In this document: positions 12,025-33,830 of the stretch, one piece after another
Position numbering within the stretch: the first letter of the stretch is position 1
How the letters are laid out: the number at the start of each line of letters is the position of its first letter
IMG/VR virus record: IMGVR_UViG_2740892219_000011
Source: a virus
Taxonomy: Duplodnaviria > Heunggongvirae > Uroviricota > Caudoviricetes
DNA length: 33,830 nucleotides
Direction: 5' to 3' (one strand)
Notes under the pieces: generated by a model
Seen by the model: only the letters and a program-made list of their open reading frames with translations
Database searches by the model: none
Told to the model about the DNA's origin: nothing
Program-made: the position numbers and the translations under genes

Positions 12025-12035
12025 CAGGAGGCGTG

Positions 12036-12611
12036 ATGGACAGGAAAACACGGGGCCGGGCTTCAAAAGTGGATTTACTGCCGGAAAACGTACGTAAAAC
12101 GCTGCATGAAATGCTGCGTGATAAGGCGATCCCACAGGCCCGCATTCTGGAAGAAATTAACGCACTGATTGAAGACGCTGGCCTGCCGGATGAGATGAAA
12201 CTCTCCCGTTCCGGTCTGAACCGTTACGCGACGAACGTCGAGCAAGTAGGCCATAACCTGCGACAGATGCGTGAAATGACGTCAGCACTGACCGCAGAAC
12301 TTGGCGACAAGCCAATGGGAGAAACCACAAAGCTGATTCTGGAAATGGCCCGCAGCCAGCTTTTTAAGGCCATGATGCGGCAAATCGAAAACCCGGAATC
12401 TGACGTGGATATTGACCTGCTGAAAAATGCCATGCTGGCGGCACAGCGTCTGGAATCCACGGCAATGTCCAGCCACCGGCGCGAGAAAGAAATCCGCCAG
12501 GCATTCGCAGAAGAAGCGGCAAACGCCGTCAGTGAAGAACTGCGCGGGCAGGATGGCATCAGCGAAGAGCTGGAGCAGCGTATCCGTGATGTGCTGCTGG
12601 GTAAGGCATGA
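12036..12611 (+). CDS. D: Terminase small subunit (DNA-recognition), about 191 aa
   Basis: AGGAGG upstream of ATG 12036 (ATG 12021 also possible); position directly upstream of the large terminase. Confidence 0.7.
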   Translation: MDRKTRGRASKVDLLPENVRKTLHEMLRDKAIPQARILEEINALIEDAGLPDEMKLSRSGLNRYATNVEQVGHNLRQMREMTSALTAELGDKPMGETTKLILEMARSQLFKAMMRQIENPESDVDIDLLKNAMLAAQRLESTAMSSHRREKEIRQAFAEEAANAVSEELRGQDGISEELEQRIRDVLLGKA

Positions 12612-12618
12612 GAGGGTT

Positions 12619-15812: not shown

Positions 15813-17112
15813 TCTGGCGTATGCCGCACGCCTCCCGCCAAAGGAGGCTGTCGCGTATTTCCGCGCCAAAGGTTACAACATCACCTGGAACTGGTACGAA
15901 CAACTGGCAGACGCGCACGCCTGCGCCTTTACCGTTGCCAAAGCCACCCGGATGGATGTACTGACCACAATCCGTGAGGAAGTGGAGCGGGCTGTCAGTG
16001 AAGGCATCACCCGTGAGGAATTTACCCGCACACTTGCCCCCCGGCTGCAAAAACTCGGATGGTGGGGAAAACAAATCATCGTGGATGCAGACGGAAACGC
16101 AAAGGTAATCGAGCTGGGCAGTCCGCGTCGTCTGGCAACCATTTATAACGTCAATACCCGTACGGCGTATGGGGCAGGACGTTATGCGCAGATGATGAAT
16201 ACCGCCGATTTGTACCCGTACTGGCAGTACGTTGCCGTTATGGATGGCAGAACACGCCCGGAACATGCGCGGCTGCACAATATGGTTTTCCGGTATGACG
16301 ACATTTTCTGGCAGACGCATTACCCGCCCAATGGCTGGAACTGCCGCTGTCGCGTCCGGGCGCTGTCTGCGGCCCGCATGAAAGAACTGGGGCTACAGGT
16401 CAGTTATGGTACGTCATTCATGAATACCCGCGAAGTGGATGCCGGTACGGATGAAAGCACCGGAGAGATTTTCCGCACATCGTCAACCACGTTTGACAAC
16501 GGTCGGGTAAAAATGACGCCAGATGTGGGCTGGTCATATAACCCCGGTTCGGCGGCATTTGGTACGGATCAGGCACTGATTCGAAAACTGGTGGAAGTTC
16601 GTGACGCGCAGCTGCGTGAGCAGGTTGTTCAGACGCTGAATAACAGCCGGGAGCGTCAGCTTGCTTTTTCCCTCTGGTTTAAACGTCTGGCGAAATCACG
16701 CCGGGCCGGACATGAGGTCCGTACGCTGGGTTTTATGACGGGATCCGTGGCGGAGGCCGTATATCAGCGCACCGGGAATATGCCAGCCCGTCTGCTTGTG
16801 ATGAACGGGAAAAGTCTGGCGACCACTGCTGATGCCGCCCTGAAACCGGAGGATTTACAGCGTCTGCCGTCGCTGATGGCAAAACCACAGGCGGTATTGT
16901 GGGACAGGGAGAACCACCAGTTGCTGTATGTTGTGGCAACCCGCGACGGCACTGCAAAAGTTGTGGTCAGAACATCGCAGGCTGTCAGCAAACAGAATGA
17001 CCGGGCGGATGTGCTGGTCAGTATCAGCCGCGTATCTGCACAGTCGCTTGAAGCCGCGATTGCTGACGGGATGATTGACATACTGGAGGGGCATGTGGAG
17101 GTGAATAAGTGA
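15793..17112 (+). CDS. F: Mu F-like head morphogenesis / minor capsid protein, about 439 aa
   Basis: Follows portal; first ATG at 15793 (the track ORF begins at GTG 15757). Confidence 0.8.
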   Translation: MPQQTIDLAYAARLPPKEAVAYFRAKGYNITWNWYEQLADAHACAFTVAKATRMDVLTTIREEVERAVSEGITREEFTRTLAPRLQKLGWWGKQIIVDADGNAKVIELGSPRRLATIYNVNTRTAYGAGRYAQMMNTADLYPYWQYVAVMDGRTRPEHARLHNMVFRYDDIFWQTHYPPNGWNCRCRVRALSAARMKELGLQVSYGTSFMNTREVDAGTDESTGEIFRTSSTTFDNGRVKMTPDVGWSYNPGSAAFGTDQALIRKLVEVRDAQLREQVVQTLNNSRERQLAFSLWFKRLAKSRRAGHEVRTLGFMTGSVAEAVYQRTGNMPARLLVMNGKSLATTADAALKPEDLQRLPSLMAKPQAVLWDRENHQLLYVVATRDGTAKVVVRTSQAVSKQNDRADVLVSISRVSAQSLEAAIADGMIDILEGHVEVNK

Positions 17113-17579
17113 GTCTTGATATGAACGTTGCCGTGGATGTGCGACGTATTCAGCTTGCACTGGATGAACTGGGAACCGTTACACGTGACCGCGCCATTCC
17201 CCGTGTGATGGCTGCGGCGCTGCTGTCATCCACGGAACAGGCATTTGAACGGCAGGCAGACCCGGATACAGGGAAAGGCTGGGAAGCGTGGAGCGATTCG
17301 TGGCAGGCATGGCGTCAGGATCATGGTTTTGTTCCGGGCAGTATCCTTACCCTGCATGGCGATCTGGCACGCAGCATTACCACCGATTATGGACAGGATT
17401 ATGCCCTTATTGGTTCGCCAAAAATTTATGCTGCCATTCATCAGTGGGGCGGTACACCCGATATGGCACCCCGCCCGGCAGGCGTTCCTGCGCGTCCTTA
17501 TATGGGGCTGGATAAGACCGGGGAACAGGAAATTTTTGATGCCATCAGAAAACGCGTCAGCGCCGCTCTGAGGCAATAA
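17109..17579 (+). CDS. G: Virion morphogenesis protein G, 156 aa
   Basis: Size and position between F and the protease gene; ATGA start overlap. Confidence 0.8.
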   Translation: MSLDMNVAVDVRRIQLALDELGTVTRDRAIPRVMAAALLSSTEQAFERQADPDTGKGWEAWSDSWQAWRQDHGFVPGSILTLHGDLARSITTDYGQDYALIGSPKIYAAIHQWGGTPDMAPRPAGVPARPYMGLDKTGEQEIFDAIRKRVSAALRQ

Positions 17580-17775
17580 ACTGAATCAGACATGAAATCA
17601 GCCGCACAGATTTTTTAAAACGCGCCACGGGATTTTTAAACCGGTATTTAACGGTGTATGAATCCCGTTTTATCTTCCTTCCACTTTCTTTCTCCATTAC
17701 TCAAATAGCATAACCCCAGATTTTCCCGCACCTCCCGCAAACTGACTGCTCACAAACCATGATGAGCAGCAGGAC
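17580..17775 (+). promoter_or_regulatory. Long G-I intergenic region: candidate C-dependent late promoter and possible central strong gyrase site
   Basis: 196-bp non-coding gap in an otherwise tightly packed operon; contains CATAACCCCAGATTTTCCCGC at 17709-17729; lies roughly at the genome centre. Confidence 0.5.
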
Positions 17776-18861
17776 ATGAAAAAACACGCGATTGGCATTG
17801 CCGCACTGAGTGCGCTGTCCATTGACGATGACGGCTGGTGCCAGCTATTGCCTGCCGGTCATTTCAGTGCCCGTGATGGTCGTCCGTTTGATGTGACAGA
17901 CGGTCAGGGGTGGTTCATCGACGGTGAGATTGCCGGGCGTCTGGTTGAAGGCGTTCGCGCGCTCAACCAGGACGTGCTGATTGATTACGAGCATAACCAG
18001 CTACGTAAGGACAAAGGATTACCCCCGGAACAACTCGTCGCGGCTGGCTGGTTTAACGCCGATGAAATGCAGTGGCGTGAAGGTGAAGGGTTATTTATCC
18101 ACCCACGCTGGACGGCGGCGGCCCAGCAGCGCATCGATGACGGCGAATTTGGTTATCTCTCTGCGGTTTTTCCGTATGACACCGCCACCGGTGCAGTGCT
18201 GCAAATCCGCCTTGCTGCGCTGACCAATGACCCCGGTGCCACCGGCATGAAAAAGCTGACCGCACTGGCGGCAGACCTTCCCAACATCCTTCAACAGGAG
18301 AACAAACCCATGAATGAAACGCTGCGCAAGCTGCTTGCGCGTCTTGGGGTGACGGTCCCCGAAAATGCAGACATCACCGATGAACAGGCCAGCGCGGCCC
18401 TGAGTGCGCTTGATGCGCTCGAAACAGATGCCGGAAAAGTGGCGGCGTTGTCTGCCGAACTGGAAAAGGCACAGAAAGCCGCCGTTGACCTGACGAAATA
18501 CGTCCCGGTGGAAAGCTACAACGCCCTGCGTGATGAACTGGCACAGGCGACTGCACAAAGCGCCACAGCAAGCCTGAGCGCCGTTCTGGACAAGGCGGAA
18601 CAGGAAGGCCGCATTTTCAAAAGCGAACGTACCTATCTGGAACAGCTTGGCGGTCAGATTGGCGTGGCGGCACTGTCGGCACAGCTTGAGAAAAAACAGC
18701 CTATCGCTGCGTTATCTGCCATGCAGACCACCACAGCGAAAATCCCGTCGCAGGAAAAAACGGCGGTGGCGGTGCTGTCTGCTGATGAACAGGCAGCAGT
18801 GAAGGCGCTCGGCATTACAGAGGCTGAGTATCTGAAAATGAAACAGGAACAAGAAAAATGA
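17776..18861 (+). CDS. I: Head maturation protease / scaffold fusion protein, 361 aa
   Basis: Position between G and the major capsid gene; Ala/Gln/Glu-rich helical C-terminal half typical of scaffold domains. Confidence 0.85.
   Translation: MKKHAIGIAALSALSIDDDGWCQLLPAGHFSARDGRPFDVTDGQGWFIDGEIAGRLVEGVRALNQDVLIDYEHNQLRKDKGLPPEQLVAAGWFNADEMQWREGEGLFIHPRWTAAAQQRIDDGEFGYLSAVFPYDTATGAVLQIRLAALTNDPGATGMKKLTALAADLPNILQQENKPMNETLRKLLARLGVTVPENADITDEQASAALSALDALETDAGKVAALSAELEKAQKAAVDLTKYVPVESYNALRDELAQATAQSATASLSAVLDKAEQEGRIFKSERTYLEQLGGQIGVAALSAQLEKKQPIAALSAMQTTTAKIPSQEKTAVAVLSADEQAAVKALGITEAEYLKMKQEQEK
18310..18861 (+). CDS. Z: Candidate nested scaffold protein from an in-frame internal start within I
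   Basis: Internal ATG at 18310 preceded by AGGAGAA with suitable spacing; Mu is known to express Z from within I. Start not verified. Confidence 0.4.
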   Translation: MNETLRKLLARLGVTVPENADITDEQASAALSALDALETDAGKVAALSAELEKAQKAAVDLTKYVPVESYNALRDELAQATAQSATASLSAVLDKAEQEGRIFKSERTYLEQLGGQIGVAALSAQLEKKQPIAALSAMQTTTAKIPSQEKTAVAVLSADEQAAVKALGITEAEYLKMKQEQEK

Positions 18862-19775
18862 TTGTCACCCCGGCATCCATTAAAGCCCTGATGACCTCCT
18901 GGCGTAAGGATTTTCAGGGCGGTCTTGAAGACGCCCCGTCGCAGTACAACAAAATTGCAATGGTGGTGAACTCTTCCACCCGCAGTAATACCTATGGCTG
19001 GCTGGGTAAATTCCCGACCCTGAAAGAATGGGTGGGTAAGCGAACCATTCAGCAAATGGAAGCGCATGGCTACTCCATCGCCAATAAAACGTTTGAAGGC
19101 ACCGTGGGTATTTCCCGTGATGACTTCGAGGATGACAATCTGGGTATTTATGCGCCGATTTTTCAGGAGATGGGCCGTTCTGCGGCAGTTCAGCCGGATG
19201 AGCTGATTTTTAAACTTCTGAAAGATGGCTTTACCCAGCCGTGCTATGACGGTCAGAACTTCTTCGACAAGGAGCATCCGGTATATCCGAATGTGGACGG
19301 CACGGGCAGCGCGGTTAATACCTCCAACATCGTTGAGCAGGACAGCTTCAGCGGTCTGCCGTTCTATCTGCTGGACTGCTCCCGCGCAGTCAAACCGCTG
19401 ATTTTCCAGGAGCGCCGCAAACCGGAGCTGGTCGCACGTACCCGTATCGATGACGACCACGTTTTTATGGATAACGAGTTCCTGTTTGGTGCCAGCGCCC
19501 GCCGTGCTGCCGGTTACGGCTTCTGGCAGATGGCTGTCGCGATAAAAGGCGATCTGACGCTGGATAACCTCTGGAAGGGCTGGCAACTGATGCGCTCTTT
19601 TGAAGGTGATGGCGGTAAGAAGCTGGGCCTGAAGCCGACGCATATCGTTGTACCGGTCGGACTGGAAAAAGCCGCAGAGCAACTGCTTAACCGTGAACTG
19701 TTCGCGGATGGCAATACCACCGTCTCCAACGAGATGAAGGGCAAGCTGCAACTGGTTGTCGCTGACTACCTGTAA
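18858..19775 (+). CDS. T: Major capsid protein, 305 aa
   Basis: Size and position after protease/scaffold; followed by a strong hairpin. Confidence 0.9.
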   Translation: MIVTPASIKALMTSWRKDFQGGLEDAPSQYNKIAMVVNSSTRSNTYGWLGKFPTLKEWVGKRTIQQMEAHGYSIANKTFEGTVGISRDDFEDDNLGIYAPIFQEMGRSAAVQPDELIFKLLKDGFTQPCYDGQNFFDKEHPVYPNVDGTGSAVNTSNIVEQDSFSGLPFYLLDCSRAVKPLIFQERRKPELVARTRIDDDHVFMDNEFLFGASARRAAGYGFWQMAVAIKGDLTLDNLWKGWQLMRSFEGDGGKKLGLKPTHIVVPVGLEKAAEQLLNRELFADGNTTVSNEMKGKLQLVVADYL

Positions 19776-19783
19776 CCGTCGTT

Positions 19784-19807
19784 AAAAGGCGGTTCAGGCC
19801 GCCTTTT
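19784..19807 (+). terminator. Hairpin after the capsid gene (terminator or attenuator)
   Basis: AAAAGGCGG-TTCAGG-CCGCCTTTT perfect stem immediately after the T stop. Confidence 0.5.
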
Positions 19808-19841
19808 AACCTGATTTAAAGGAAAAGGAGGAGCATGTGTT

Positions 19842-20252
19842 ATGTCAGGCACTTCGCTTAATTCACAACGGCTGGACACTTCTCGCATCACTTGCACGGC
19901 GATTATTAAATGCCTTCGTCCGGTCTACCGCCGCGCCGGAATCGCCTTTACACGTGGTGAAAACACCGTGGAAGTCACCGAAGAACAACTGGCGATCATT
20001 CGTGCCGACAGCGTGCTGTCTGTGGTATCTGCATCGTCAGCAGAAACGCTCGCTGAGGCTGGGGGGCTGGACGTTCTGGGTGTGGGCGATCTGAATACCC
20101 GTATCCGTGCGACCGTTGCCGGTCTGGATAAGGCAAACCCGGAGCACTTTACCGCAGGGGGAGAACCCAAAGTGAAAGCCGTCAGTGCGGCGCTGGGGGA
20201 ACCGGTGAGCAGTGCGCAAATCAAAGCGGCGCTGGCTGAGGCGGATGCATGA
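19842..20252 (+). CDS. Hypothetical head-associated protein, 136 aa
   Basis: ATG 19842 about 10 nt downstream of AAGGAGGAG. Confidence 0.65.
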   Translation: MSGTSLNSQRLDTSRITCTAIIKCLRPVYRRAGIAFTRGENTVEVTEEQLAIIRADSVLSVVSASSAETLAEAGGLDVLGVGDLNTRIRATVAGLDKANPEHFTAGGEPKVKAVSAALGEPVSSAQIKAALAEADA

Positions 20253-20674
20253 ATTACGCGACGGTAAATGACCTGTGCGCCCGCTATACACGTACGCGGC
20301 TGGATATTCTCACCCGCCCTAAAACAGCGGACGGGCAGCCGGATGATGCCGTGGCAGAACAGGCACTGGCAGATGCCTCGGCCTTTATTGATGGCTATCT
20401 CGCCGCGCGCTTTGTTCTGCCGCTTACCGTCGTCCCCTCACTGCTGAAACGGCAGTGTTGCGTGGTGGCCTGGTTTTATCTGAATGAATCACAACCCACC
20501 GAGCAGATCACCGCTGCCTACAGGGACACAGTGCGCTGGCTGGAACAGGTGCGCGATGGCAAAACAGATCCCGGCGTGGAAAGCAGGACGGCAGCCTCGC
20601 CGGATGGTGAAAACCTTGTGCAGGTGCAGTCTGACGCGCCGGTCTTCTCACGAAAACAGAAGGGGTTTATCTGA
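20249..20674 (+). CDS. J: Head-tail connector / head completion protein, 141 aa
   Basis: Position and size in the Mu late operon order; ATGA overlap with the upstream gene. Confidence 0.7.
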   Translation: MNYATVNDLCARYTRTRLDILTRPKTADGQPDDAVAEQALADASAFIDGYLAARFVLPLTVVPSLLKRQCCVVAWFYLNESQPTEQITAAYRDTVRWLEQVRDGKTDPGVESRTAASPDGENLVQVQSDAPVFSRKQKGFI

Positions 20675-21222
20675 TGCTGGAAGAAACCGAAGCCGCACTG
20701 CTGGCGCGCGTTCGTGAGTTGTTTGGGGCAACCCTGCGGCAGGTGGAACCCCTTACCGGCACATGGACTAACGAGGATGTGCACCGTCTCTTTCTGGCCC
20801 CGCCATCGGTATTTCTGGCATGGATGGGCTGTGGTGAGGGGCGTACGCGTCGGGAAGTTGAAAGTCGCTGGGCATTTTTTGTCGTGGCGGAGTTGCTGAA
20901 CGGGGAACAGGTAAACCGGCCCGGTATTTATCAGATTGTGGAGCGACTGATTGCCGGTGTTAACGGTCAGACGTTTGGCCCGACCACCGGGATGAGACTG
21001 ACGCAGGTCAGAAATCTTTGTGACGACAACCGTATCAATGCCGGTGTGGTGCTTTACGGCGTTCTGTTCAGTGGCACTACCCCGCTGCCGTCCGTGGTGG
21101 ACATGGATTCGCTGGATGATTACGAGCGTCACTGGCAGACCTGGAAATTCCCGGACGAAACCCCGGAATTTGCCGCACATATCAATGTGAATCAGGAAAA
21201 GGATCATGATGCTGAAAATTAA
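20674..21222 (+). CDS. K: Tail terminator / tail completion protein, 182 aa
   Basis: Position immediately upstream of the sheath cluster; translationally coupled. Confidence 0.65.
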   Translation: MLEETEAALLARVRELFGATLRQVEPLTGTWTNEDVHRLFLAPPSVFLAWMGCGEGRTRREVESRWAFFVVAELLNGEQVNRPGIYQIVERLIAGVNGQTFGPTTGMRLTQVRNLCDDNRINAGVVLYGVLFSGTTPLPSVVDMDSLDDYERHWQTWKFPDETPEFAAHINVNQEKDHDAEN

Positions 21223-21412
21223 ACCCGCAGCGGGAAAAGCCATCCGTGACCCGCTCACGATGAAATTACTGGCTCCGGAGGGAGAAGAAAAGCCCCGTAA
21301 CAGTTTCTGGATACGTCGCCTTGCAGCCGGTGATGTGGTTGAAGTCGGGAACACCGAAAACACGGCGGATGATACCGACGCTGCGCCGAAAAAACGGAGT
21401 AAATCGAAATGA
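21206..21412 (+). CDS. Small hypothetical protein, 68 aa
   Basis: ORF between K and the sheath gene with overlapping start and stop. Confidence 0.55.
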
Positions 21413-22896
21413 GCGATATTTCATTTAACGCGATCCCGTCAGATGTTCGCGTTCCTCTGACGTATATCGAATTTGATAACAGTAATGCCGTCAGCGGAAC
21501 ACCGGCACCCCGTCAGCGCGTGCTGATGTTCGGGCAAAGCGGAAGTAAAGCCAGTGCGGCACCAAACGTGCCTGTCCGTATCCGTTCCGGCTCACAGGCC
21601 AGTGCGGCGTTTGGTCAGGGTTCCATGCTGGCACTGATGGCAGATGCATTCCTGAACGCTAACCGCGTGGCGGAGCTGTGGTGTATTCCGCAGGGGAACG
21701 GCACCGGTAATGCTGCTGTCGGTGAAATTTCACTGTCAGGAACGGCAGGCGAAAACGGCTCGCTTGTGACTTACATTGCCGGTCAGCGACTGGCGGTATC
21801 TGTCGCAGCAGGTGCAACGGGAGCGGCGCTGGCTGACCTGCTGGTTGCCCGAATCAAAGGCCAGCCGGATTTACCGGTGACGGCAGAAGTTCGCGCAGAC
21901 AGCGGAGATGATGACACCCATGCAGATGTGGTTCTGAGTGCAAAATTTACGGGTGCATTATCTGCCGTGGACGTGCGCTGGAACTATTACGCGGGTGAAA
22001 CCACCCCTTACGGGATTATCACGGCATTCAAAGCCGCCTCCGGGAAAAATGGCAACCCGGATATCAGCGCAAGTATCGCGGGAATGGGCGATCTGCAATA
22101 CAAATATATTGTGATGCCCTATACCGATGAACCGAACCTGAATCTGTTACGCACTGAATTGCAGGAACGCTGGGGACCGGTCAATCAGGCTGATGGTTTT
22201 GCCGTGACAGTGCTGTCCGGCACGTATGGGGATATTTCTACGTTTGGTGTCAGTCGTAATGACCATCTGATCTCCTGTATGGGGATTGCCGGTGCACCGG
22301 AACCGTCATATCTGTACGCCGCCACACTGTGTGCCGTTGCCAGCCAGGCGCTTTCCATCGACCCGGCGCGTCCGCTCCAGACGCTGACGTTGCCCGGAAG
22401 AATGCCGCCTGCGGTGGGGGATCGTTTTACCTGGTCAGAACGTAATGCGCTGCTGTTTGACGGCATCTCCACGTTTAACGTGAATGATGGTGGTGAAATG
22501 CAGATTGAACGCATGATCACGATGTACCGCACAAACAAGTACGGTGACAGTGATCCGTCTTATCTGAACGTGAATACCATCGCCACGCTGAGTTATCTGC
22601 GTTATTCGCTGCGAACCCGCATCACGCAGAAATTCCCGAACTACAAGCTGGCAAGTGATGGCACCCGCTTTGCCACCGGTCAGGCCGTGGTGACGCCATC
22701 CGTGATCAAAACGGAACTGCTGGCACTGTTTGAAGAATGGGAAAACGCCGGACTGGTCGAGGATTTCGACACGTTCAAAGAGGAGCTGTATGTGGCACGT
22801 AACAAGGACGACAAAGACCGTCTTGATGTGCTGTGCGGCCCGAATCTGATTAACCAGTTCCGCATTTTCGCGGCACAAGTTCAGTTCATTCTGTAA
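21409..22896 (+). CDS. L: Contractile tail sheath protein, 495 aa
   Basis: Size and position followed by a tail tube-sized gene; matches Mu L. Confidence 0.9.
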
Positions 22897-22905
22897 GGAG
22901 CATTT

Positions 22906-23262
22906 ATGGCTGGAAATCAGCGTCAGGGGGTGGCGTTCATCCGTGTCAATGGCATGGAGCTTGAAACGATGGAAGGGGCCTCCTTCACACCTTCCGGCAT
23001 CACCCGTGAAGAAGTGACCGGCTCGCGGGTTTATGGCTGGAAAGGTAAACCACGTGCCGCAAAGCTGGAATGCAAAATTCCGGGCGGTGGTGATATCGGT
23101 CTGGATGAAATCATCGGCTGGGAAAATATCACGGCAGAGTTTCAGGCAGACACCGGTGAAACCTGGATGATGGCGAATGCCTGGCAGGCAGATGAACCGA
23201 AAAACGACGGCGGCGAAATTTCGCTGGTACTGATGGCAAAACAAAGCAAACGCATTGCATAA
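22906..23262 (+). CDS. M: Tail tube protein, 118 aa
   Basis: Small gene directly after sheath; RBS AAGGAGCATTT. Confidence 0.85.
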   Translation: MAGNQRQGVAFIRVNGMELETMEGASFTPSGITREEVTGSRVYGWKGKPRAAKLECKIPGGGDIGLDEIIGWENITAEFQADTGETWMMANAWQADEPKNDGGEISLVLMAKQSKRIA

Positions 23263-23271
23263 GGGGAAACA

Positions 23272-23706
23272 ATGGACGAAATGAATTTAGGTCCTGAAGC
23301 ACAGGAACTGCATGACAGCATTGTGGCAGAAATTCAGTCCGGCGTGCTGAAACTGAAAGACGGCCTGCCGTTCGGCACCGGTGACGAGACTGAAATGCAG
23401 TATGACGTGACACTGCGTGAACTGACCGCAGGCGATATGATTGATGCACAGGCGGCTGCTGAAAAGCTGGTAATGAGCAAGGAAGGTCCGGTGCTGGTCA
23501 GTTCCCCGTCCCGGATGGGACTGGAAATGCTGCGCCGACAGATTGCCAGCGTGGGCTGCATCAAAGGCCCGTTGTCGATGGCGCTGATTCGTAAGCTGTC
23601 TGTCGATGACTTCCAGCGTCTGTCGCTGGCCACAGAAATGTACGACATGGCTGTGGCGGCATCGCTGACGCAAGAACGGGGGCGAGTGGCTGCGGTGCCG
23701 GAATGA
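23272..23706 (+). CDS. Y: Tail assembly chaperone (tape-measure chaperone), 144 aa
   Basis: Acidic protein located between the tube and tape-measure genes; an alternate frame is open from near its 3' end to the tape-measure start. Confidence 0.75.
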   Translation: MDEMNLGPEAQELHDSIVAEIQSGVLKLKDGLPFGTGDETEMQYDVTLRELTAGDMIDAQAAAEKLVMSKEGPVLVSSPSRMGLEMLRRQIASVGCIKGPLSMALIRKLSVDDFQRLSLATEMYDMAVAASLTQERGRVAAVPE

Positions 23707-23850
23707 TATTGAGAAAGCGGCGACAGCGATTGGCGTTATTCTGAAAAGTGGCCCGGAATGGGCCTTATCCCTTCCGCTGTCCCGCTTTTTCCGGCACTGC
23801 CAGCAGGCTAAAACCCTCTCTCAATATCACCGTTAAATCAGGAAATCTCT
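23707..23850 (+). promoter_or_regulatory. Y/tape-measure gap: candidate late promoter motif and candidate frameshift-extension region
   Basis: Contains CTTATCCC...TCCCGCTTTTT at 23764-23790; the +1 frame relative to Y is open across the whole gap. Confidence 0.4.
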
Positions 23851-25923
23851 ATGACCGGGAAACGCTTAAAGGCGTCTGTCATTATTGATCTTAATGGCAA
23901 TCTTTCCCGGCGTTCCCGCCAGTATTCGAACCAGATAAACGCCCTGTCCCGTAGCGGACAAAGTTCCCTTCGTGCCCTGCGTATGGAGGTTGTGCGCGTT
24001 TCTGGTGCCATTGACAGAATGGGTTCTCTGTCAACCCGTACATTCCGAATGCTGTCAGCCGGGGCGCTGGGTATCGCTGGCGTGGGTTACACCGCCAATA
24101 AACTGTTTATTGGTGCAGCCGCCCAGCGTGAGCAGCAGATCATCGCCATGAACTCGCTGTATCACGGCGATAAGGTCAGAGCGCAGGCCATGATGGCCTG
24201 GGCGAAGCAGAACGCGAAGGACACCACGTGGGGGCTGAGTGGTGTTCTTGATGAGATCCGTTCGTCGAAAGGCTTCGGCATGACGGATGAACAGACGAAA
24301 CAGTTCATCACCATGTTGCAGGATCAGGGGGCCATGCACGGCTGGGATTTACCAACTGCACAGGGTGCCTCACTGCAACTGAAACAGATGTTTGCCCGCC
24401 AGCAAATCACAGCGGCGGATGCCAACCTGCTGACCGGTTACGGTATTAACGTTTACCAGACGCTGGCGGATGCACTGGGTAAAGACGTTAAGGATATCCG
24501 CAAACAAGGTGAAAAAGGCAAGCTGGGTCTGAAATCCATTCTGACGGTATTCAGAACGCTGTCAGAACAGTCAAAAGGTGCACAGGCCAGTGCGATGAAC
24601 TCCTGGGACGGGATGTTCGCCCAGATGGAAGCTAACCTGCTTGAATTTCGCATAAAGGTGGCAAACAGCGGCCCCTTTGAAGAAATCAAGAACGAGATGC
24701 GCCGGGTGCTTAACTGGCACGACATGGCGGATAAATCCGGGGAACTTGACGCACTGGCAGAAAACATTGGTCAGAAATTTCTGACCACGTTCAGAACGGT
24801 AAAAATCGCGGCGCAGGAATTATGGCGCTGGCTGAAACCGGGTAAAGATGCGCTGGCATGGGTTGACCAGAATATTGTCAGCCTGAAAAAACTGGCTGCT
24901 GTTCTGGTGTCTGTCTGGCTTGCCAATAAAGCCCTGAGAGCAGGCTGGGCCGTGGCAAAACCCTCATGGCAGGTTGCCAGTTATCCGTTTAAAACCGGGC
25001 GTCGTATGTGGCGCTGGATGCGAAACCGCAAACGTGGGCAGGCAGGTCTGCCGGTCCCGGATGCCATGACGTCTGAGACGCTGTTGCAGGGTATCGGCAT
25101 TCAGCGTGTGTTTGTCATCAACTGGCCCCGTGGATTTGGTGGCTACGGGAGTGGCGGCGGTCGTCGCGGACGGAGCGGCGGAAGAATGGCCCCGCTGTTA
25201 CCCCGCCAGCCGTTATTGCTGTCCGGGCCACAGCCGCTGGCATTACCTGCACCACGCCCTGTACTGGCATTACCCCCACCCGGCGTACCGGTAACAGCAC
25301 GGCCTGCACCATTACCTTTACCCGGTAAATCCGGTCTTCTGAGCAGGCTTGCAGGCAGTGCTGCCGGGCAACTGGTTACGGGAACGGTCGGAAAGCTGGC
25401 TGATGCCGGGCGTGCTGTTGGCGGGTGGTTTTCCGGTATCGGAAACAAACTTGCAGGCAGTGCGATCGGTCGGGTTGTGACAAAAGGTGCCGGGGCGCTG
25501 GGCTGGATGGGGAAAGGTGCCGGTCGTGCGTTGTCACGTCTGGGTGGCCCGGTAATGGGGGCACTCCAGCTTGCCCCCGTCCTGATGGATGAGCAGGCGT
25601 CAACCCATGAAAAAGCAGGTGCAATTGGCAGTACAGCCGGTGCATGGCTCGGCGGTGCCGTTGGCAGCCTTGCCGGACCGCTGGGTACGGTTGCCGGTGC
25701 CACGCTGGGCAGTGTCGCCGGGGAGTATCTGGGCGGTTTTGTAACCGACCTGTATCAGAAATGGACGGCCCCGGATAAGGAACCGCAGGAACAAAAAGTG
25801 AATGCGGAAGCCTCGCTGCGCGTCGAACTTGGCGAGGGGTTACGTCTGGCCAGTTCCCGTGTCACCGAGGATGGTATGGGGCTGAATATTTACGCGGGCG
25901 ATAACTACATTACAGGCTGGTAA
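23851..25923 (+). CDS. Tail tape measure protein, 690 aa
   Basis: Largest tail ORF, downstream of sheath/tube/chaperone; helical N-terminal part and a Gly/Pro/Ala-rich low-complexity C-terminal third. Confidence 0.85.
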
Positions 25924-25927
25924 AACC

Positions 25928-27415
25928 ATGTTTGAAGATGCTTTAAATGCCGTTAATGCTGTCCGGGATAAAATCAGCGGTGGTAAGAAAACAACCGGCA
26001 AAGGCACGTTCCGTAACGTGCCGTTTCTCGTCATCGAGGAGCAAAAACAGGCTGGCGGACGTCGCCTGGTTAAACGCGAGTACCCGTTACGTGATACCGG
26101 CGGCGTCAATGACCTGGGGAAAAAGCTTCGCTCCCGTACATTCAGCGCCTGCATTCTGAACAGCAACGCAGAAACAGCCAGAGATGAAGCGGGTGCGCTG
26201 ATGGATGCTCTTGATGCTCCGGGTAGCGGTGAGCTGGTACATCCTGATTTCGGCACTGTGGACGTCATGGTGGATTCATGGGAATGCCGCACTAAAGCGG
26301 ATGAACTGAATTATTACGCGTTCACCGTTACCGTTTATCCGTCGTTGCAGGATACTGCCCCGGACGCAGAGACAGACACCAGTGCAGCCGTACCTGCACA
26401 GGCCGTTGCTGTAACCGGTTCTCTGGGAGATACGCTGTCCTCTGTCTGGCAAACCGTAAAAGATGGCACTGCGGCGGCAACCGCCGTGATGGAAGCTGTA
26501 ACCGGTGTCATCGATGATATCAGTGATGCGGTGGACAATCTGGGGGTTACGCAGACTGTCAGCGGTCTGATGGGATCGCTTTCTGCGATGAAAGGCTCTG
26601 TGACCAGCCTGATTAACCAGCCTGCCATGCTGGCCTCCTCGCTGATGGGGGCGCTGTCCGGCGTTTCATCGTTATGCGATACCCGGACAGCATTTTCCAC
26701 ATGGAACCGTCTGGCGCAGCGATTCGAACCTCGCCATGCCGCCACCGCAGGCAGACAGGGGACAATCACAACCTCGTACAACAGTCCGGTTGCAGAAAAA
26801 AATATTGCCACACTGAACTACGTCATGCTGGCAGCGGCGCAGACATACCGGGCAGAAGCTGCCAGTCAGGCACTGACTGCGGCACTGGATTTCAGTCGCC
26901 GGATGGATAATGCCGCCCGTGCACCTGTACTGGATGCCCCGTCCACCACAACCGGCACAGCCAGCGGGGCCAGCAGCACATCTGCTACTGTCACACAGGG
27001 ACAGTTACAGTTAACTGCCATAACCCCGGACGGCGGCTTTTCACAGGTATCCTTTTCAGACAGTGGTACAGCCACGCCCCCGGTATTTGAAAGTGTGTCC
27101 GATATCGGAAAAACAGCCGCCATGCTGGGGGCTGCACTGGATACCGTCATTCTGACGGCATCTGAGCAGGGCTTTTCGACAGACAGCGTTCAGCTTACGC
27201 AACTGCGTCTGCTGGTTGTTGCCGACCTGGAAAAACGCGGGCTGCAACTGGCGGGCAGTGAAACGCACCGCCTGCCGGAGACGATGCCTGCAATGGTGGC
27301 CCTGTACCGTTACACAGGAAACAGCCGGAACTGGCAACGGCTGGCCCGCAGGAACGGTATCAGCAACCCGTTGTTTGTTCCCGGTGGCGTCAGTATTGAG
27401 GTGATTAATGAGTAA
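25928..27415 (+). CDS. N: DNA circularization protein N-like tail protein, 495 aa
   Basis: Position after the tape measure; size consistent with Mu N as I recall. Confidence 0.65.
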
Positions 27416-28547
27416 TACCGTCACGCTGCGAACGGATGGCAGGCTTTTTACCGGCTGGACGTCAGTCTCTGTCACCCGCTCGATTGAATCCGTAGCCGGA
27501 TATTTTGAGCTGGGGGTGAACGTGCCACCGGGCACGGATTTATCCGGGCTGGCACCGGGGAAGAAGTTCACGCTCGAAATCGAGGGGCAGATTGTCTGCA
27601 CCGGTTATATCGATTCACGGCGACGCCAGATGACCGCTGACAGTATGAAAATCACTGTCGCCGGACGTGACAAAACGGCTGACCTGATTGACTGTGCTGC
27701 CGTTTACAGTGGCGGGCAGTGGAAAAACCGCACACTGGAACAGATTGCGCGTGACCTGTGCGCTCCTTATGGCGTTACCGTTCGCTGGGAGCTTTCCGAT
27801 AAGGAAAGTTCGGCAGCTTTTCCCGGCTTCACGCTGGACCATTCAGAAACCGTTTATGAGGCGCTGGTGCGTGCCTCCCGCGCACGCGGTGTACTGATGA
27901 CCAGCAATGCCGCAGGAGAGCTGGTATTCAGCCGGGCTGCCAGCACAGCCACTGATGAGCTGGTTCTCGGAGAAAATCTGCTGACACTGGATTTTGAGGA
28001 AGACTTCCGCGACCGGTTCAGCGAATACACCGTCAAGGGGTATGCCCGCGCAAACGGTGCTGAGGGTGATGATATTGATGCGAAAAGTATCGTCTCCCGG
28101 AAAGGGACCGCCACTGACAGTAATGTGACCCGTTACAGACCGATGATCATCATTGCCGACAGCAAAATTACGGCGAAGGATGCACAGGCCCGCGCCCTGC
28201 GTGAGCAACGCCGCAGACTGGCAAAATCCATCACCTTTGAGGCAGAAATTGACGGATGGACACGCAAGGACGGGCAACTCTGGATGCCGAACCTGCTGGT
28301 CACTATTGATGCATCGAAATATGCCATCAAAACCACAGAATTACTGGTCAGCAAAGTCACCCTGATACTGAATGACCAGGACGGGCTGAAAACCCGCGTC
28401 AGCCTTGCACCACGCGAAGGCTTTCTGGTGCCGGTTGAAAGCGACCGTAAAAACAGGAAAGGCGACGACAGTAACGGCGGTATTGATGCGCTGGTTGAAG
28501 ATTATTATCGCAGACACCCGGAGAAAACGCCGCCGTGGAAAGAGTAA
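27408..28547 (+). CDS. P: Baseplate hub protein, 379 aa
   Basis: Order and size in the Mu baseplate cluster. Confidence 0.65.
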
Positions 28548-29128
28548 ATGATTCCGCCCTGAACCGCCTGCTGATGCCGCTGATGCGTCGTGTGCGCCTG
28601 ATGCTTGCGCGCGCTGTTGTTAACGTGATTAACGACGGGCGAAAGGTTCAGAACCTGCAGGTCGGCCTGCTGGATGATGAGGAATCTGATGAAGTGGAGC
28701 GCCTGCAAAATTACGGGCATTTCAGCGTTCCCCTGCCGGGAGCAGAGGCGCTGATTGCCTGTGTGGGCGCACAACGTGATCAGGGGATTGCTGTTGTGGT
28801 GGAAGACCGCCGCTACCGCCCGACAAATCTTGAACCGGGTGATGCAGGCATTTACCACCACGAGGGGCATCGTATCAGGCTGACAAAGGACGGACGCTGC
28901 ATCATTACCTGTAAAACGGTTGAGGTTTACGCTGATGAAAGTATGACAGTTGACACACCCAGAACCACGTTTACCGGCGACGTTGAGATCCAGAAAGGTC
29001 TGGGCGTTAAAGGTAAAAGCCAGTTCGACAGCAATATTACTGCCCCGGATGCCATCATCAATGGCAAATCGACGGATAAGCATATCCACCGTGGCGACAG
29101 CGGCGGAACCACGGGGCCAATGCAATGA
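28535..29128 (+). CDS. Baseplate central spike protein (gpV-like), 197 aa
   Basis: Probable GTG start at 28535 with GGAGAAAA upstream; position in the baseplate cluster. Confidence 0.6.
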   Translation: MERVNDSALNRLLMPLMRRVRLMLARAVVNVINDGRKVQNLQVGLLDDEESDEVERLQNYGHFSVPLPGAEALIACVGAQRDQGIAVVVEDRRYRPTNLEPGDAGIYHHEGHRIRLTKDGRCIITCKTVEVYADESMTVDTPRTTFTGDVEIQKGLGVKGKSQFDSNITAPDAIINGKSTDKHIHRGDSGGTTGPMQ

Positions 29129-29562
29129 CCGATTTAGCCATTATCTGGACGAACGGACGCGGCGATATTGCACAGGATGGCATTGATATGCTGACCGACG
29201 ACAGCCTGACAACCGATGTGACAATCTCCCTGTTTACCGACCGGCGCGCGCTGGATTCTGACACGCTGCCGGATGGTTCAGATGATCGCCGTGGATGGTG
29301 GGGTGACAGTTACCGCGACCGCCCCATCGGTTCGCGGTTGTGGCTGTTATCACGTGAAAAAGCCACACCGGATACGCTGGAACGCGCCAGAGGGTATGCC
29401 GAAGAGGCGCTGGAATGGCTGAAAACAGCGGGCCGGGTAAGTGCGATTAACGTCAGAGTGGAACAGTTACATCAGGGCTGGTTATACCTCTACATTGCAC
29501 TGACATTACCGGATGGTTCCGTTATTCCTTATGAGTTTAAAGCAGCATTTAACGGGGTTTAA
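29125..29562 (+). CDS. Baseplate wedge protein (gp25/GPW-like), 145 aa
   Basis: Size and position; translationally coupled. Confidence 0.6.
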   Translation: MTDLAIIWTNGRGDIAQDGIDMLTDDSLTTDVTISLFTDRRALDSDTLPDGSDDRRGWWGDSYRDRPIGSRLWLLSREKATPDTLERARGYAEEALEWLKTAGRVSAINVRVEQLHQGWLYLYIALTLPDGSVIPYEFKAAFNGV

Positions 29563-30645
29563 ATGGCTTATTCACCACCGACATTATCATCGCTGATTGC
29601 CCGTACAGAACAGAATATTGAACAGCGCCTGCCGGGTAGCTGGCCTCAGGCCCGTGAAAAAACGCTGAGTGCCATTGCTTATGCTCAGGCAGGCCTTGCT
29701 GCCGGTTGTCACGAGCATATTTCATGGGTTGGACGGCAGATTATCCCGTCGACAGCAGATGAAGATGAGTTGCTGGAGCACTGCCGGTTCTGGGGCGTGC
29801 GCCGCAAACAGGCGACAGCCGCCAGCGGCCCGCTGACTGTCACCACATCGGCAGCGACCACCATTCCTGCCGGTACACGCTGGCAGCGTGCTGATGGTGT
29901 GGTTTACAGCCTGGCTGATGCCATTGTGATTGACCGTGCAGGAACGACGGAAATTACCGTTACCGCACTGGCTGCCGGTGAAGCAGGAAATACCGGTGAG
30001 AATACCCTTTTAACGTTGATCACCCCGGTTGCCTGTGTTGTTTCCGATGCCATCACTGTAAAAGGGTTTTCCGGTGGGGCAGATATTGAGAGTGCAGCGG
30101 AGCTGCTGTCACGGCTGGAATATCGTGTCCAGTATCCTCCGTTCGGCGGTAATCAGTTTGATTACGTCCGCTGGGCACGTGAAGTCAGCGGCGTTACCCG
30201 TGCCTGGTGTTTTCCGACATGGAAAGGCGGTGGCACAGTCGGGGTGACGTTTGTTATGGATAACCGGATCAATATTTTTCCACAACCGGCAGATGTGGAA
30301 CGTGTGGCGGATTATATCGCCGGTCATACTGACCCGATAACCGGCCTGATTGTCGGGCAGCCTGATGGTGTAAATGTCACGGTATTTGCGCCAAAGGCAA
30401 AGCCGGTAAATCCACGGATTTATATATCACCGAAGACAGCCGAACTGAAACAGGCTATTACTCACGCCATTAATACCATGTTTTTTAATGAGGTGACGCC
30501 GGGCGGCGCACTTGCCCCCTCCCGTATTATCCGTGCGGTGGCAGGTGTTACCGGTCTGGATGATTTTGAAGTGCGTTTCCCGACAGAGATCCAGCGTTCG
30601 GAGAATACGGAACTGTTAACACCGGGGACAATTGAATGGCTGTAA
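29563..30645 (+). CDS. Baseplate wedge protein (J-like), 360 aa
   Basis: Size and position between the small wedge protein and the tail-fibre-proximal gene. Confidence 0.65.
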   Translation: MAYSPPTLSSLIARTEQNIEQRLPGSWPQAREKTLSAIAYAQAGLAAGCHEHISWVGRQIIPSTADEDELLEHCRFWGVRRKQATAASGPLTVTTSAATTIPAGTRWQRADGVVYSLADAIVIDRAGTTEITVTALAAGEAGNTGENTLLTLITPVACVVSDAITVKGFSGGADIESAAELLSRLEYRVQYPPFGGNQFDYVRWAREVSGVTRAWCFPTWKGGGTVGVTFVMDNRINIFPQPADVERVADYIAGHTDPITGLIVGQPDGVNVTVFAPKAKPVNPRIYISPKTAELKQAITHAINTMFFNEVTPGGALAPSRIIRAVAGVTGLDDFEVRFPTEIQRSENTELLTPGTIEWL

Positions 30646-31178
30646 CACCCTATCAGACGGCCTTTCTGCAATTACTGCCGTCAGGGCTTGCCTGGAATAA
30701 AAGCCCCGACAGCAAATTATCTGCGCTGGCGCAGGCCATCAGCGACGTGATTGCCACTGCGGCGGATGATGCGCGGCAAATGCTGCGGGAGCGTTTCCCG
30801 TCCACATCCCGCTGGTATCTGGGGGAGTGGGAATCATTTCTGGGGTTGCCGGACTGTACCAGCGAAAACGGCACCCTGTCCGAACGCCAGCGGGCTGCCG
30901 CGAATAAAATGCGTATGACCGGCAATCTGAGTCGGCGCTTTTATGAATGGCTGGCTGCGCAGTACGGTTTTACCGTCAGGCTGACGGATTCCACAGAAGG
31001 CCAGTGGGTTACGCAGGTCAATATTTACGGTATTAAAAATTATCGCAACGCAACGGTGCTGGATAATGTTCTGACGCCGTTACGTGTTTATGAATCGGGT
31101 GCGCTGGAATGTTTACTGGAGAAATATAAACCCGCACATCAGATTTATAAATTTGTTTACCATGACGGAGATAACTAA
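30636..31178 (+). CDS. Baseplate / tail-fibre attachment protein (gpI-like), 180 aa
   Basis: Last baseplate gene before tail fibre S. Confidence 0.6.
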   Translation: MAVTPYQTAFLQLLPSGLAWNKSPDSKLSALAQAISDVIATAADDARQMLRERFPSTSRWYLGEWESFLGLPDCTSENGTLSERQRAAANKMRMTGNLSRRFYEWLAAQYGFTVRLTDSTEGQWVTQVNIYGIKNYRNATVLDNVLTPLRVYESGALECLLEKYKPAHQIYKFVYHDGDN

Positions 31179-32299
31179 TGTTTTATATTGATAACGACAG
31201 CGGCGTAACCGTCATGCCGCCCGTATCCGCCCAGCGTAGTGCTATCGTTCGCTGGTTTTCAGAAGGTGACGGGAATAATGTTATCACATGGCCCGGCATG
31301 GACTGGTTTAATATTGTGCAGGCGGAGTTATTAAACACGCTGGAAGAAGCCGGTATTCAACCGGATAAAACAAAATTAAACCAGCTTGCACTGTCCATTA
31401 AAGCCATTATGAGCAATAACGCGCTGCTGATAAAAAATAACCTCAGCGAAATTAAAACTGCCGGGGCATCAGCACAGCGTACAGCACGTGAAAATCTGGA
31501 TATCTGGGATGCCAGCCTGAACAAAAAAGGACTCGTTCAGCTAACCAGTGCCACTGACAGCCCCAGTGAAACGCTGGCAGCCACCGCAAAAGCGGTGAAA
31601 ATTGCGATGGATAAAAACCTCGGTTTACAGGAAACTGTAAAATTAGCTTCGGAAGCGTTATCAACATATGGCGGGGTGGTTAACGGTGATGTGATTATCA
31701 AGGGCATTCTCTCGTTAATTGGGAATGAATTACTTATTGAAAAAGATAATGGCTTTTCTGGTATTCACATCAGAAACAAGAGCACGGTTGCAGGAAGTGC
31801 AAATGGAGTCGATTTCTCATTTGGCGGAGCGATTATGTCATCGCTCATTTGCGGAATAATGGAAAATGGCGCGAACTACATAGATGTTGCATTGTCTCCG
31901 GCAGGCAATATTTCTGACCGCCGCAAGGTTGCATTTACTTTGGATGGAAATATCAGGCAGTTAATTCCCCAGAATGGATGGAGCATTCAGGGGTATACAA
32001 AAAACAGTGATTTTACCCAGGCGATGGCCGATGCTGGCTGGGTACGTTTTCCAAATGGCATCATTTTTCAATGGTGTTGGGGAAATACTGATGCCAGTGG
32101 CTGGGCATCTGCCCCGTTTCCTGTTGGTTGGCCTGTTCGTTGCTTTGGTTTGTTAGCCTGTAACGTTGCTGGTGACTCGATAGCAAGTGCAATTGCGGGT
32201 GTTAAAAGATTAAATGATCGCGATATGCAGGTCACGTTAATGGAAAGGTCTGGGGTTGCTGTTTCTAAACCATTCTTCTGTATTGGTGTGGGGTGTTAA
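31178..32299 (+). CDS. S: Tail fibre protein S, with constant part and G-segment variable part, 373 aa
   Basis: Followed by a tail-fibre assembly gene and by inverted U'-S' on the minus strand; a gix-like recombination site lies inside the ORF. Confidence 0.8.
   Translation: MFYIDNDSGVTVMPPVSAQRSAIVRWFSEGDGNNVITWPGMDWFNIVQAELLNTLEEAGIQPDKTKLNQLALSIKAIMSNNALLIKNNLSEIKTAGASAQRTARENLDIWDASLNKKGLVQLTSATDSPSETLAATAKAVKIAMDKNLGLQETVKLASEALSTYGGVVNGDVIIKGILSLIGNELLIEKDNGFSGIHIRNKSTVAGSANGVDFSFGGAIMSSLICGIMENGANYIDVALSPAGNISDRRKVAFTLDGNIRQLIPQNGWSIQGYTKNSDFTQAMADAGWVRFPNGIIFQWCWGNTDASGWASAPFPVGWPVRCFGLLACNVAGDSIASAIAGVKRLNDRDMQVTLMERSGVAVSKPFFCIGVGC
31609..31634. other. gix-like DNA-invertase crossover site (left boundary of the invertible G segment) inside S
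   Basis: Reverse complement reads TTCCTGTAAACCGAGGTTTTTATCC, closely resembling the Gin/Hin recombination site consensus as I recall it. Confidence 0.6.
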
Positions 32300-32301
32300 T
32301 C

Positions 32302-32778
32302 ATGTCCAGTAAAATATTCTATAGTGCCAGGAATAATACGTTTTTCTTTGAATCCATGAAACCGGACTATGAAAAATCAGGCGCATGGCCTGACGATTTG
32401 GTGGCAGTCACAAACGATATGTATGAAGAGTTTACGGGAAGACCGCCAGAGGGAAAAAAGAGAGGCCGTGATGAATCTGGTTTCCCTACATGGATTGATG
32501 TATCAGAACCAACAACAGAGCAGTTAATCGCATTAAAAGAGCAGAAGAAAAAGGATTTAGCCGAGATTGCGAACACAGAAATTGCCTGGCGGCAGGATGC
32601 TGTTGACGCAGGGATGGCGACAGAAGCAGAAATCACTGTACTGGCTGAATGGAAAAAATATCGTGTGCTGCTTATGCGTATTGATACATCAACCGCGACG
32701 GATATTGAGTGGCCCGCTGTTCCAGACGAACAAAGCGGCAAAGAGAGCAGCGCAGAGGATGTGAAAACGACGCTATAA
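32302..32778 (+). CDS. U: Tail fibre assembly protein, 158 aa
   Basis: ATG 32302 just after the S stop (the track ORF begins at GTG 32293); small acidic protein downstream of the fibre gene. Confidence 0.75.
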   Translation: MSSKIFYSARNNTFFFESMKPDYEKSGAWPDDLVAVTNDMYEEFTGRPPEGKKRGRDESGFPTWIDVSEPTTEQLIALKEQKKKDLAEIANTEIAWRQDAVDAGMATEAEITVLAEWKKYRVLLMRIDTSTATDIEWPAVPDEQSGKESSAEDVKTTL

Positions 32779-32882
32779 TACCAGCACAATTATTATCATT
32801 TTTGTTATTTTGTATTTCCTTGCTTTCCGCAGTCATGTGGATATGGAAAAGCCTGGATGGCCACAAAAGCCTGAGTAAAATT

Positions 32883-32902
32883 AAGGCCCGATAACGGGCC
32901 TT
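32883..32902. terminator. Hairpin between convergent U and U' (probable terminator)
   Basis: AAGGCCCG-ATAA-CGGGCCTT perfect stem immediately 3' of the U' stop on the minus strand, flanked by A/T runs. Confidence 0.55.
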
Positions 32903-32904
32903 TC

Positions 32905-33438
32905 TCATTCTGGTTGTTCGGGGAATGTTACCGGCAGGCTGGAGGTGTCTGTGGATTCGACTTTCTGCGCATAGAGCATCCACTCGGTTAATTTCTGTTT
33001 ATTCTCATCGGAAATGATGCCCAGCCGTAGCTGTGAGTCCCATAGCTGGGTTTTATCCCTGACAAGTTGCAACAGGCTTTGTTTTTCATTCTCTGCCTGC
33101 TGCCTCTGCTCTTCCCCGGTATAAGTTCGCTTTATCACCGCACCATCTTTGAACATCCATTTACCCGAAATATCAGCCCGGCGATTTGCTGTAATATCAG
33201 GTAATTCAACGACGCTTGCGCCTTCTGGATTAATTGCTGAAACATCCTTTTCAATACAAATAATAACGCCGTTATGGTCATAGACCATTTTCAACGTATC
33301 AGACTGGAAATTCTTTTGTTCCTCATACCAGTTTTTTCCATCCTCTGTATAAAGCCATTTGATGTTAAATTGCTTTGTTAGCTGATATTGCTCTTTTGTT
33401 TTAGGATTGCCAGCAGTAATGTTTTTTAAGTGCATCAT
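32905..33438 (-). CDS. U': Alternative tail fibre assembly protein, 177 aa
   Basis: Minus-strand ORF inside the G segment, typical Tfa-like protein, convergent with U. Confidence 0.8.
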   Translation of the reverse strand: MMHLKNITAGNPKTKEQYQLTKQFNIKWLYTEDGKNWYEEQKNFQSDTLKMVYDHNGVIICIEKDVSAINPEGASVVELPDITANRRADISGKWMFKDGAVIKRTYTGEEQRQQAENEKQSLLQLVRDKTQLWDSQLRLGIISDENKQKLTEWMLYAQKVESTDTSSLPVTFPEQPE

Positions 33439-33440
33439 CG

Positions 33441-33830
33441 TTAAATACTCCCCGCGTTATACCACGTCCCATTAATGCAATACTGAATTGGCCTTGCCTG
33501 AGTTGTATCAATTAATTCGTCACGGTTTCCGTTAACTGAACCTGTAACGACATAACCTGACTTATCAGACCAACCAGGCCCATTCCATGTTTGAACAGAT
33601 GACAGTCCTCCTAAACGGACACCTGTAATAAATCGTGAATTACATTCCGCTTTAGTATATGCACCAACATCTCCTGCTGAAGGTTTTCTGGTGGTGGTGT
33701 AAAATTCGGACCAGTCGGCTTCAAAACCATAACCATCACGGGCTGAACGATAAAAGATACCGCCGTTCTTATAATTCACGCGGAACTGTACTGCCGGACA
33801 ACTACCCGTATTCATATTGAAATGAAGAAT
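33441..33830 (-). CDS. S': Alternative tail fibre variable C-terminal part, partial; 5' end lies beyond the window
   Basis: Minus-strand ORF ending at 33441; the frame stays open to the window edge. Gly/Asn/Thr-rich receptor-binding-like C-terminus, unrelated to the C-terminus of S. Confidence 0.7.
   Translation of the reverse strand: MLHFNMNTGSCPAVQFRVNYKNGGIFYRSARDGYGFEADWSEFYTTTRKPSAGDVGAYTKAECNSRFITGVRLGGLSSVQTWNGPGWSDKSGYVVTGSVNGNRDELIDTTQARPIQYCINGTWYNAGSI

Follow-up and report, generated by a model that had tools for sequence, protein, structure and literature searches.

The closest described systems are the invertible G segments of the Mu and D108 phages, in which alternative tail-fibre ends are exchanged behind one constant part of the fibre gene S. 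In the annotation of Mu, the boundary of the G segment lies inside S and is followed by U, U', S' and gin. The crossover sites recognized by invertases of the Gin/Hin/Cin/Pin type are 26 bp long and consist of two 12-bp inverted half-sites (TTMTCNNAAACC) that flank a 2-bp core. The mechanisms of Mu Gin and Salmonella Hin have been described elsewhere (PMC3575834, PMC3798978, PMC4406740), and the passage of PMC3798978 that cites Kahmann et al. (1985) places the Fis-dependent enhancer within gin.

The DNA analysed here, hereafter the window, is a stretch of 33,830 nucleotides. Judged by sequence comparison, it is an E. coli prophage of the Mu/D108 type (Muvirus) that is near-identical to Escherichia virus Mu_3F6. 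Positions 1-25000 show 100% identity to Mu_3F6 (LR595867.1) and 98% to both D108 and Mu, and 7 SNPs separate the window from Mu_3F6 over the whole 33.8 kb, with the same content of the G segment. The Muvirus gene set, assigned via the annotation of Mu_3F6, Mu and D108, is collinear with that of Mu (c, ner, A, B, ... lys, terminase, portal, tail, baseplate gp44-48, S). The repressor/ner end (1-1127) matches D108, SfMu and Mu_3F6, but not Mu; since the match to Mu begins only at 1128, the immunity region is of the D108 type. Another contig, L093 (DRR827182), matches window positions 5783-27112 with 0 mismatches and one gap of ~10 nt.

The boundaries of the window are gene and contig boundaries, not biological ones. 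Its start coincides with the stop codon of the repressor gene in the Mu_3F6 record, and the source contig BBVT01000015.1 (GCA_001514865.1; L119) ends 2 nt past the end of the window (L119 19980-19982). The window ends inside the invertible segment because the source contig breaks there, that is, at an assembly break. Such breaks at the gix repeat are common, and the short-read contigs of several relatives end exactly at the inverted-repeat unit 31614..31635 described below.

The S-U-U'-S' cassette and its crossover site

The features of the right end of the window are the following:

31178..32299, + strand: tail-fibre gene S as assembled, 373 aa (ORF list)
31178..31613, + strand: constant part Sc, common to both fibre versions; the assembly lacks its last 60 bp
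31608..31633, + strand: very probable gixL, in its native 26-bp register (alignment with Mu and Mu_3F6)
31614..31614, no strand: single N, read here as a scaffold gap and printed as A in the window; L119 reads GATANAAACC
31614..31635, + strand: perfect inverted-repeat unit AAAACCTCGGTTTACAGGAAAC, also found at the right end of G in relatives
31634..32299, + strand: variable part Sv in the expressed orientation, with a gp53-like C-terminal receptor-binding domain (Pfam PF21882)
32302..32778, + strand: U, tail-fibre assembly chaperone for Sv, 158 aa (Caudo_TAP, E 6.6e-36; annotated in Mu_3F6)
32883..32902, - strand: terminator-like hairpin just past the U' stop (consensus scan only)
32905..33438, - strand: U', chaperone of the silent set, 177 aa (Pfam Caudo_TAP, E 2.2e-36)
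33441..33830, - strand: silent S'v, C-terminal 129 codons, running off the window (Pfam gp37_C)

Two alternative fibre ends, each with its chaperone, are found on opposite strands behind one shared constant 5' part. An earlier note on this DNA had described U as followed by convergent U' and S' genes on the minus strand, and both the ORF list and the Pfam assignments agree with it. The same note had stated that the orientation shown joins Sc to the Sv/U pair and not to S'/U'; this is indeed the layout, with Sv and U on the plus strand and U' and S'v on the minus strand. The assembled S product carries a Phage_fiber_2 domain at residues 113-147 and a Gp53-like_C domain at 290-370, and its intact counterpart in relatives of the same orientation (L098-L101, L117) has 395 aa. 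Up to position 31614, Sc shows 100% identity with Mu_3F6 and 99% with Mu. On the other side of the site, no match was found between Sv and the Sv of Mu, the expressed end being different from the Mu G(+) Sv, while the Mu match over 32830-33830 (U' and the C-terminal part of S'v) has ~90% identity, the silent set being of the Mu G(-) type. Both fusions stay in frame across the site, with products of 395 aa for Sc-Sv and 488 aa for Sc-S'v. The spacer between the convergent U and U' genes (32779-32904) measures 126 bp versus ~28 bp in Mu, and it is conserved in a P2-like prophage (L004).

We assign a probability of about 0.93 to the reading that the feature lying in frame inside S is gixL, the left crossover site of an invertible G segment of the Mu type. 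Window positions 31580-31640 read ...gcggtgaaaattgcgaTGGATAAAAACCTCGGTTTACAGGAAactgta..., and the 24-mer GATAAAAACCTCGGTTTACAGGAA is found once in the window (31610-31633), with 0 occurrences expected in 100 shuffles. Positions 31614-31633 (AAAACC TC GGTTTACAGGAA) match the Mu gix, so that 20/26 bp are identical; this authentic stretch comprises the inner left half-site, the central TC and the whole right half-site. The outer six bases (31608-31613) are TGGATA, which is Sc sequence, while all relatives have TTATCC at this place. Of the canonical gix, the window thus has the right half, the core and, in the left half, the inner 6 bp, the outer 6 bp being replaced at what we read as the scaffold gap. 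The full native site of the relatives, including those with 0-1 differences from the window, is TTATCCAAAACCTCGGTTTACAGGAA.

The earlier note had proposed a 26-bp gix/hix-like site in S at 31609-31634. A site that chance does not explain is present, although the register was 1 base off, the native one being 31608-31633. Taking the printed 26-mer as the site also holds in part only, as 20 of its 26 bp match gix and its left edge is clipped by the presumed assembly gap. The core AAACCNNGGTTT has no second exact copy anywhere in the window. Likewise, no second crossover site was found in the window, and the source contig stops 556 nt short of the place that this site occupies in the relatives.

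The 66 bp missing at position 31614

In comparison with the aligned sequences of Mu and Mu_3F6, a stretch of 66 bp (ATGCC...TTTATCC) that adjoins the site core on its left is missing from the window. It consists of the last 60 bp of Sc and the outer TTATCC of gixL, and it is present in every relative examined. Its loss is in frame, with 22 codons of Sc gone (22 aa to K).

In our reading of the sequence records, the missing 66 bp are a scaffold gap in a draft assembly, and not biology. The source contig L119 corresponds to window positions 13851-33830 with no gaps and one difference, namely that the A printed at 31614 is an N in the record. A single N placed exactly at the sole structural difference from the relatives is the signature of a scaffold join. 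No other position at which an N had been turned into a base was detected, either over 13851-33830 against the source record or over 1-18504 against an identical phage. An exact look-up of the 373-aa S product returned no match because the S product of the record has an X at residue 146. In addition, Logan contigs from DRR017168-DRR017170, possibly the runs behind GCA_001514865.1, are identical to the window. One of them, DRR017170_132, matches 12 kb of the window at 100% identity, lineage-specific SNPs included, and extends 4589 nt past window position 27112. This figure equals 4501 nt (to 31613), plus 66, plus a 22-nt perfect repeat, and contigs L120 and L121 of relatives end at ...TTTATCCAAAACCTCGGTTTACAGGAAAC. 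Since the length fits to the base, DRR017170_132 would contain the 66 bp and end where L120 and L121 end. On the basis of the relatives and of this length arithmetic, the gap itself probably holds the same 66 bp. The junction printed in the window was looked for elsewhere as well. Its 23-mer was found neither in IMG/VR nor among the GTDB species representatives or the JGI metagenomes; the junction is spanned by no phage record and by none of 48 complete E. coli genomes with this Sc, and of ten further loci, the 9 that carry this Sc stretch lack it.

One alternative is that a real 66-bp in-frame deletion took the end of Sc together with the outer 6 bp recognized by the helix-turn-helix, so that the switch would be locked, or greatly slowed, in the Sv/U state. 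In favour of it, the printed sequence is uninterrupted and the loss keeps the frame. A census of crossover sites (104 natural sites, 92 loci) also speaks for a damaged site: 206 of the 208 natural half-sites begin TT(A/C)(T/C/G)(C/T), no natural site has the outer sequence of the window, TGGATAA was never seen, and a weight matrix gives the left half-site TGGATAAAAACC a lower score than any of the 207 natural half-sites collected. Moreover, it has been reported that the catalytic domain of Gin reads only the central 20 bp, the outer bases being left to the helix-turn-helix DNA-binding domain (PMC3985619), which is the part of the site that the deletion would have affected. However, the N of the source record stands exactly at the junction, the junction is seen nowhere else among the IMG/VR, GTDB, JGI, E. 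coli and phage records named above, the 66 bp are present in all same-lineage assemblies that reach the site, and the length of DRR017170_132 fits their presence to the base. A G segment locked by a 66-bp deletion was dropped as an explanation once the source contig showed the N, and only a very small chance is left to it. It is extremely unlikely that the N is just an ambiguity in base calling where DNA was truly deleted, with the 20-bp catalytic core kept and the recognition-helix part lost; were this the case, the deletion would freeze the host range of the phage in one state. The base sequence across the junction would distinguish a gap from a deletion, as the former would give the native ...GATGGATAATGCC...TTTATCCAAAACC and the latter GATGGATAAAAACC.

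If the scaffold-gap reading is right, an ambiguous base displayed as a normal one has mimicked an in-frame, site-crippling deletion, which could be reported in error as a naturally locked switch. Short-read assemblies break, or get patched, at invertible segments, and oddities at their junctions call for a comparison with both the source record and the reads.

Two orientations, gixR and gin

The switch point is defined by a change of strand relative to Mu_3F6. Window positions 30600-31614 align to its forward strand at 100% identity, and 31614-33830 correspond to Mu_3F6 32743-34959 on the opposite strand, with 1 mismatch. The matches to Sc, both in phages and in the 48 complete E. coli genomes, all stop at 31614, and those to the G segment start there. 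The proposal of the earlier note that the site divides a constant from a variable part of S is therefore borne out, as the homology of both parts breaks at 31614 in every relative. In Mu_3F6, TTATCCAAAACCTCGGTTTACAGGAA borders the segment towards Sc, and an inverted copy (TTATCTAAAACC... half-site) borders it towards gin.

An exact look-up of the U protein provided ten more loci (L097-L106). The orientation of the window, with an intact gixL, is found in five Mu-like prophages (L097-L101) and in L117. The opposite orientation is found in L103, L104 (which is Mu_3F6) and L106, and where the gene is complete (L103, L104) the flipped S'v gives an S' fusion of 488 aa. Two of the relatives in the window orientation (L099, L100) differ from it by 0-1 bases over the shared 6.4 kb, the 66 bp aside. 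On the other side, the phage of GCA_027218445.1 is identical to the window over 20.7 kb, at 1-18504 (L124) and at 31614-33830 (L106), and has the Sv end joined to the gin flank. As far as sequence identity can tell, records of one and the same phage genotype exist in both orientations, which is a comparison between assemblies and not an observation of switching within one culture. Detection of a single orientation had been named in the earlier note as an argument against inversion; Mu_3F6, L103 and L106 are flipped with respect to the window, L097-L101 and L117. For the source strain, inversion of the G segment appears probable from this comparison of assemblies.

The right repeat and the invertase gene had been expected beyond the window, and this is what the relatives point to: there is no second site inside, and near-identical relatives have gixR followed by gin. 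The sequence of gixR is TTCCTGTAAACCGAGGTTTTAGATAA; it starts 2778 bp after gixL, i.e., ~556 nt past the window end, and gin comes next (L097-L101). The inverted second site is present in L097-L101, L103 and L104, and gin in all full-length relatives. The lack of an inverted site and of an invertase gene downstream, which would have spoken against an invertible segment, is not what is seen in L099, L100 and L117, as all three, which are separated from the window by 0-1 bases across 6.4 kb of shared sequence, carry an intact gixR as well as gin. In the source assembly, gixR and gin would lie outside both the window and its contig, and their presence is predicted from these relatives. The gin product of Mu_3F6 is a 193/205-aa serine recombinase with PF00239 (Resolvase) and PF02796 (HTH_7) domains, 99% identical to Mu Gin. 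At the DNA level, the 5' part of its gene has no mismatch with Mu over the first ~120 bp and ~97% identity beyond.

By analogy with the established biology of Mu and Hin, the switch may operate as follows. The late transcript of the tail genes would run through Sc and on into the variable end that is turned towards it. In the orientation of the window, Sc would be expressed joined to the gp53-like Sv and followed by the chaperone U, with U' and S'v silent on the other strand. Gin, a serine invertase encoded to the right of the segment, would bind as dimers to gixL and to the inverted gixR, ~2.78 kb apart, and would be activated by Fis bound at the enhancer in the 5' part of gin. Gin is expected to cut both sites at the central TC/GA dinucleotide via a phosphoserine link, the ends being exchanged by subunit rotation. 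Inversion would then swap the expressed fibre/chaperone pair (Sv-U vs. S'v-U'), and could in this way change adsorption specificity and host range.

It has also to be considered that the segment might be a fossil in this host, that is, that the G layout persists with gin or gixR lost and no inversion taking place. The contig ends inside S'v, and neither gixR nor gin is seen for this assembly; furthermore, natural Mu-like prophages with altered repeats exist, such as SfMu (PMC4406740), and the SfMu-like variant AAAACGTCGG is also found in L108 and L116. Nevertheless, breaks at or near the repeat are the expected product of mixed orientations in short-read assemblies, the relatives L099, L100 and L117 keep an intact gixR and gin, and the phage of GCA_027218445.1, with its 20.7 kb of identity, has gin beside a G segment in the opposite orientation, all of which makes a fossil highly improbable. 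Three further candidates were rejected: a multi-inversion system (Min/shufflon-like), as a scan for extra crossover sites inside G found none; a "deletion" made by Gin via a quasi-site in Sc, as the junction lies 6-7 bp from the cut dinucleotide and the pseudo-site matches poorly; and one illegitimate inversion that moved the 66 bp to the right end, which is unneeded as relatives of the same orientation hold the 66 bp in place.

Comparison with Mu, SfMu, Hin and the P1- and P2-type systems

The locus holds no new biology: it is the host-range switch of Mu as found in textbooks, and this variant of it, which is widespread in E. coli, had been deposited before as Mu_3F6. Its gene order (gp47, gp48, S, U, U', S', gin, com, mom) is the one of the Mu/D108 G segment. 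With respect to Mu, identity amounts to 99% for Sc, 99% for the Gin of the sibling phage and ~90% for the silent U'/S'v set, and it is complete for the gix core and the inner half-site. On the other hand, the Sv/U expressed here is not the Mu G(+) pair and carries a gp53-like C domain, S has 395 aa (in the relatives) versus 504 aa in Mu, and the distance between the sites is 2778 bp versus ~3.06 kb in Mu. Mu_3F6 and the window are essentially one phage, as the 7 SNPs indicate, although G is opposite in Mu_3F6 and its Sc-gixL region is complete, whereas the window carries the 66-bp loss that we attribute to the gap. A literature search on Mu_3F6 found no paper.

The Hin/hix system of Salmonella shares with this locus the recombinase subfamily, the 26-bp sites, the Fis-dependent enhancer and cleavage at the central 2 bp (PMC3798978). 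Unlike the G segment, Hin flips a promoter, and the hin gene and its enhancer lie inside the segment; at the present locus, it is coding ends that change places, and gin is located beyond the segment. SfMu of Shigella flexneri is likewise Mu-like, with a G segment between 34-bp repeats (PMC4406740) and an Sc 99.4% identical to that of the window. It differs in that one of its repeats has a real 1-bp change, whereas the defect of the site in the window is, in our reading, an assembly gap. The SfMu change adjoins the crossover dinucleotide, and reduced inversion has been suggested by the authors (PMC4406740).

Some variation was observed at the same kind of site in other elements. In the Mu-like prophages L108 and L116 (~2240-2265), gixL has AAAACGTCGG and not AAAACCTCGG, a 1-bp change by the central dinucleotide that resembles the SfMu repeat mutation suggested to impair inversion. 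Two IMG/VR loci, L011 (~7244, minus strand) and L035 (~8380), have the gix core and inner half with a non-canonical outer half, ACACCTC in L011 and AACGGNA, which contains an N, in L035. These outer halves may be decayed sites, different fibre stems or more assembly joins. In the metagenome scaffold L110 (43-1210), gp47 is truncated (179 vs. 360 aa) and immediately preceded by a resolvase/invertase gene, while the adjoining gp48-S region is otherwise normal. The gp48 protein occurs in ~12,000 blocks of the contig collection, and many fibre lengths follow it.

The comparison extends to the Cin/cix C segment of P1/P7 and to the invertible fibre segments of P2-like phages, which have the same type of Sv/U cassette, with homology starting from the core of the crossover site. 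A P1-like contig (L102) contains the same Sv/U cassette, with an identical U protein, beside a serine invertase and within a fibre of 679 aa. L105 has the cassette, likewise with an identical U protein, in fusion with a fibre of the P2 type (607 aa), and in the P2-like prophage L004 a 96% identical copy adjoins a serine invertase. The partner U' gene of L004 is split by an insertion of the IS600 family. The P1- and P2-type systems differ from the window in the constant parts of their fibres, and the P1-type site is TTCTCTTAAACCAAGGTTTAGGATTG, with AA as the central dinucleotide. It has long been held that gix-type sites also act as joints for cassette exchange. The presence of one Sv/U cassette behind stems of the Mu, P1 and P2 types, homologous from the crossover core onwards, fits this view.
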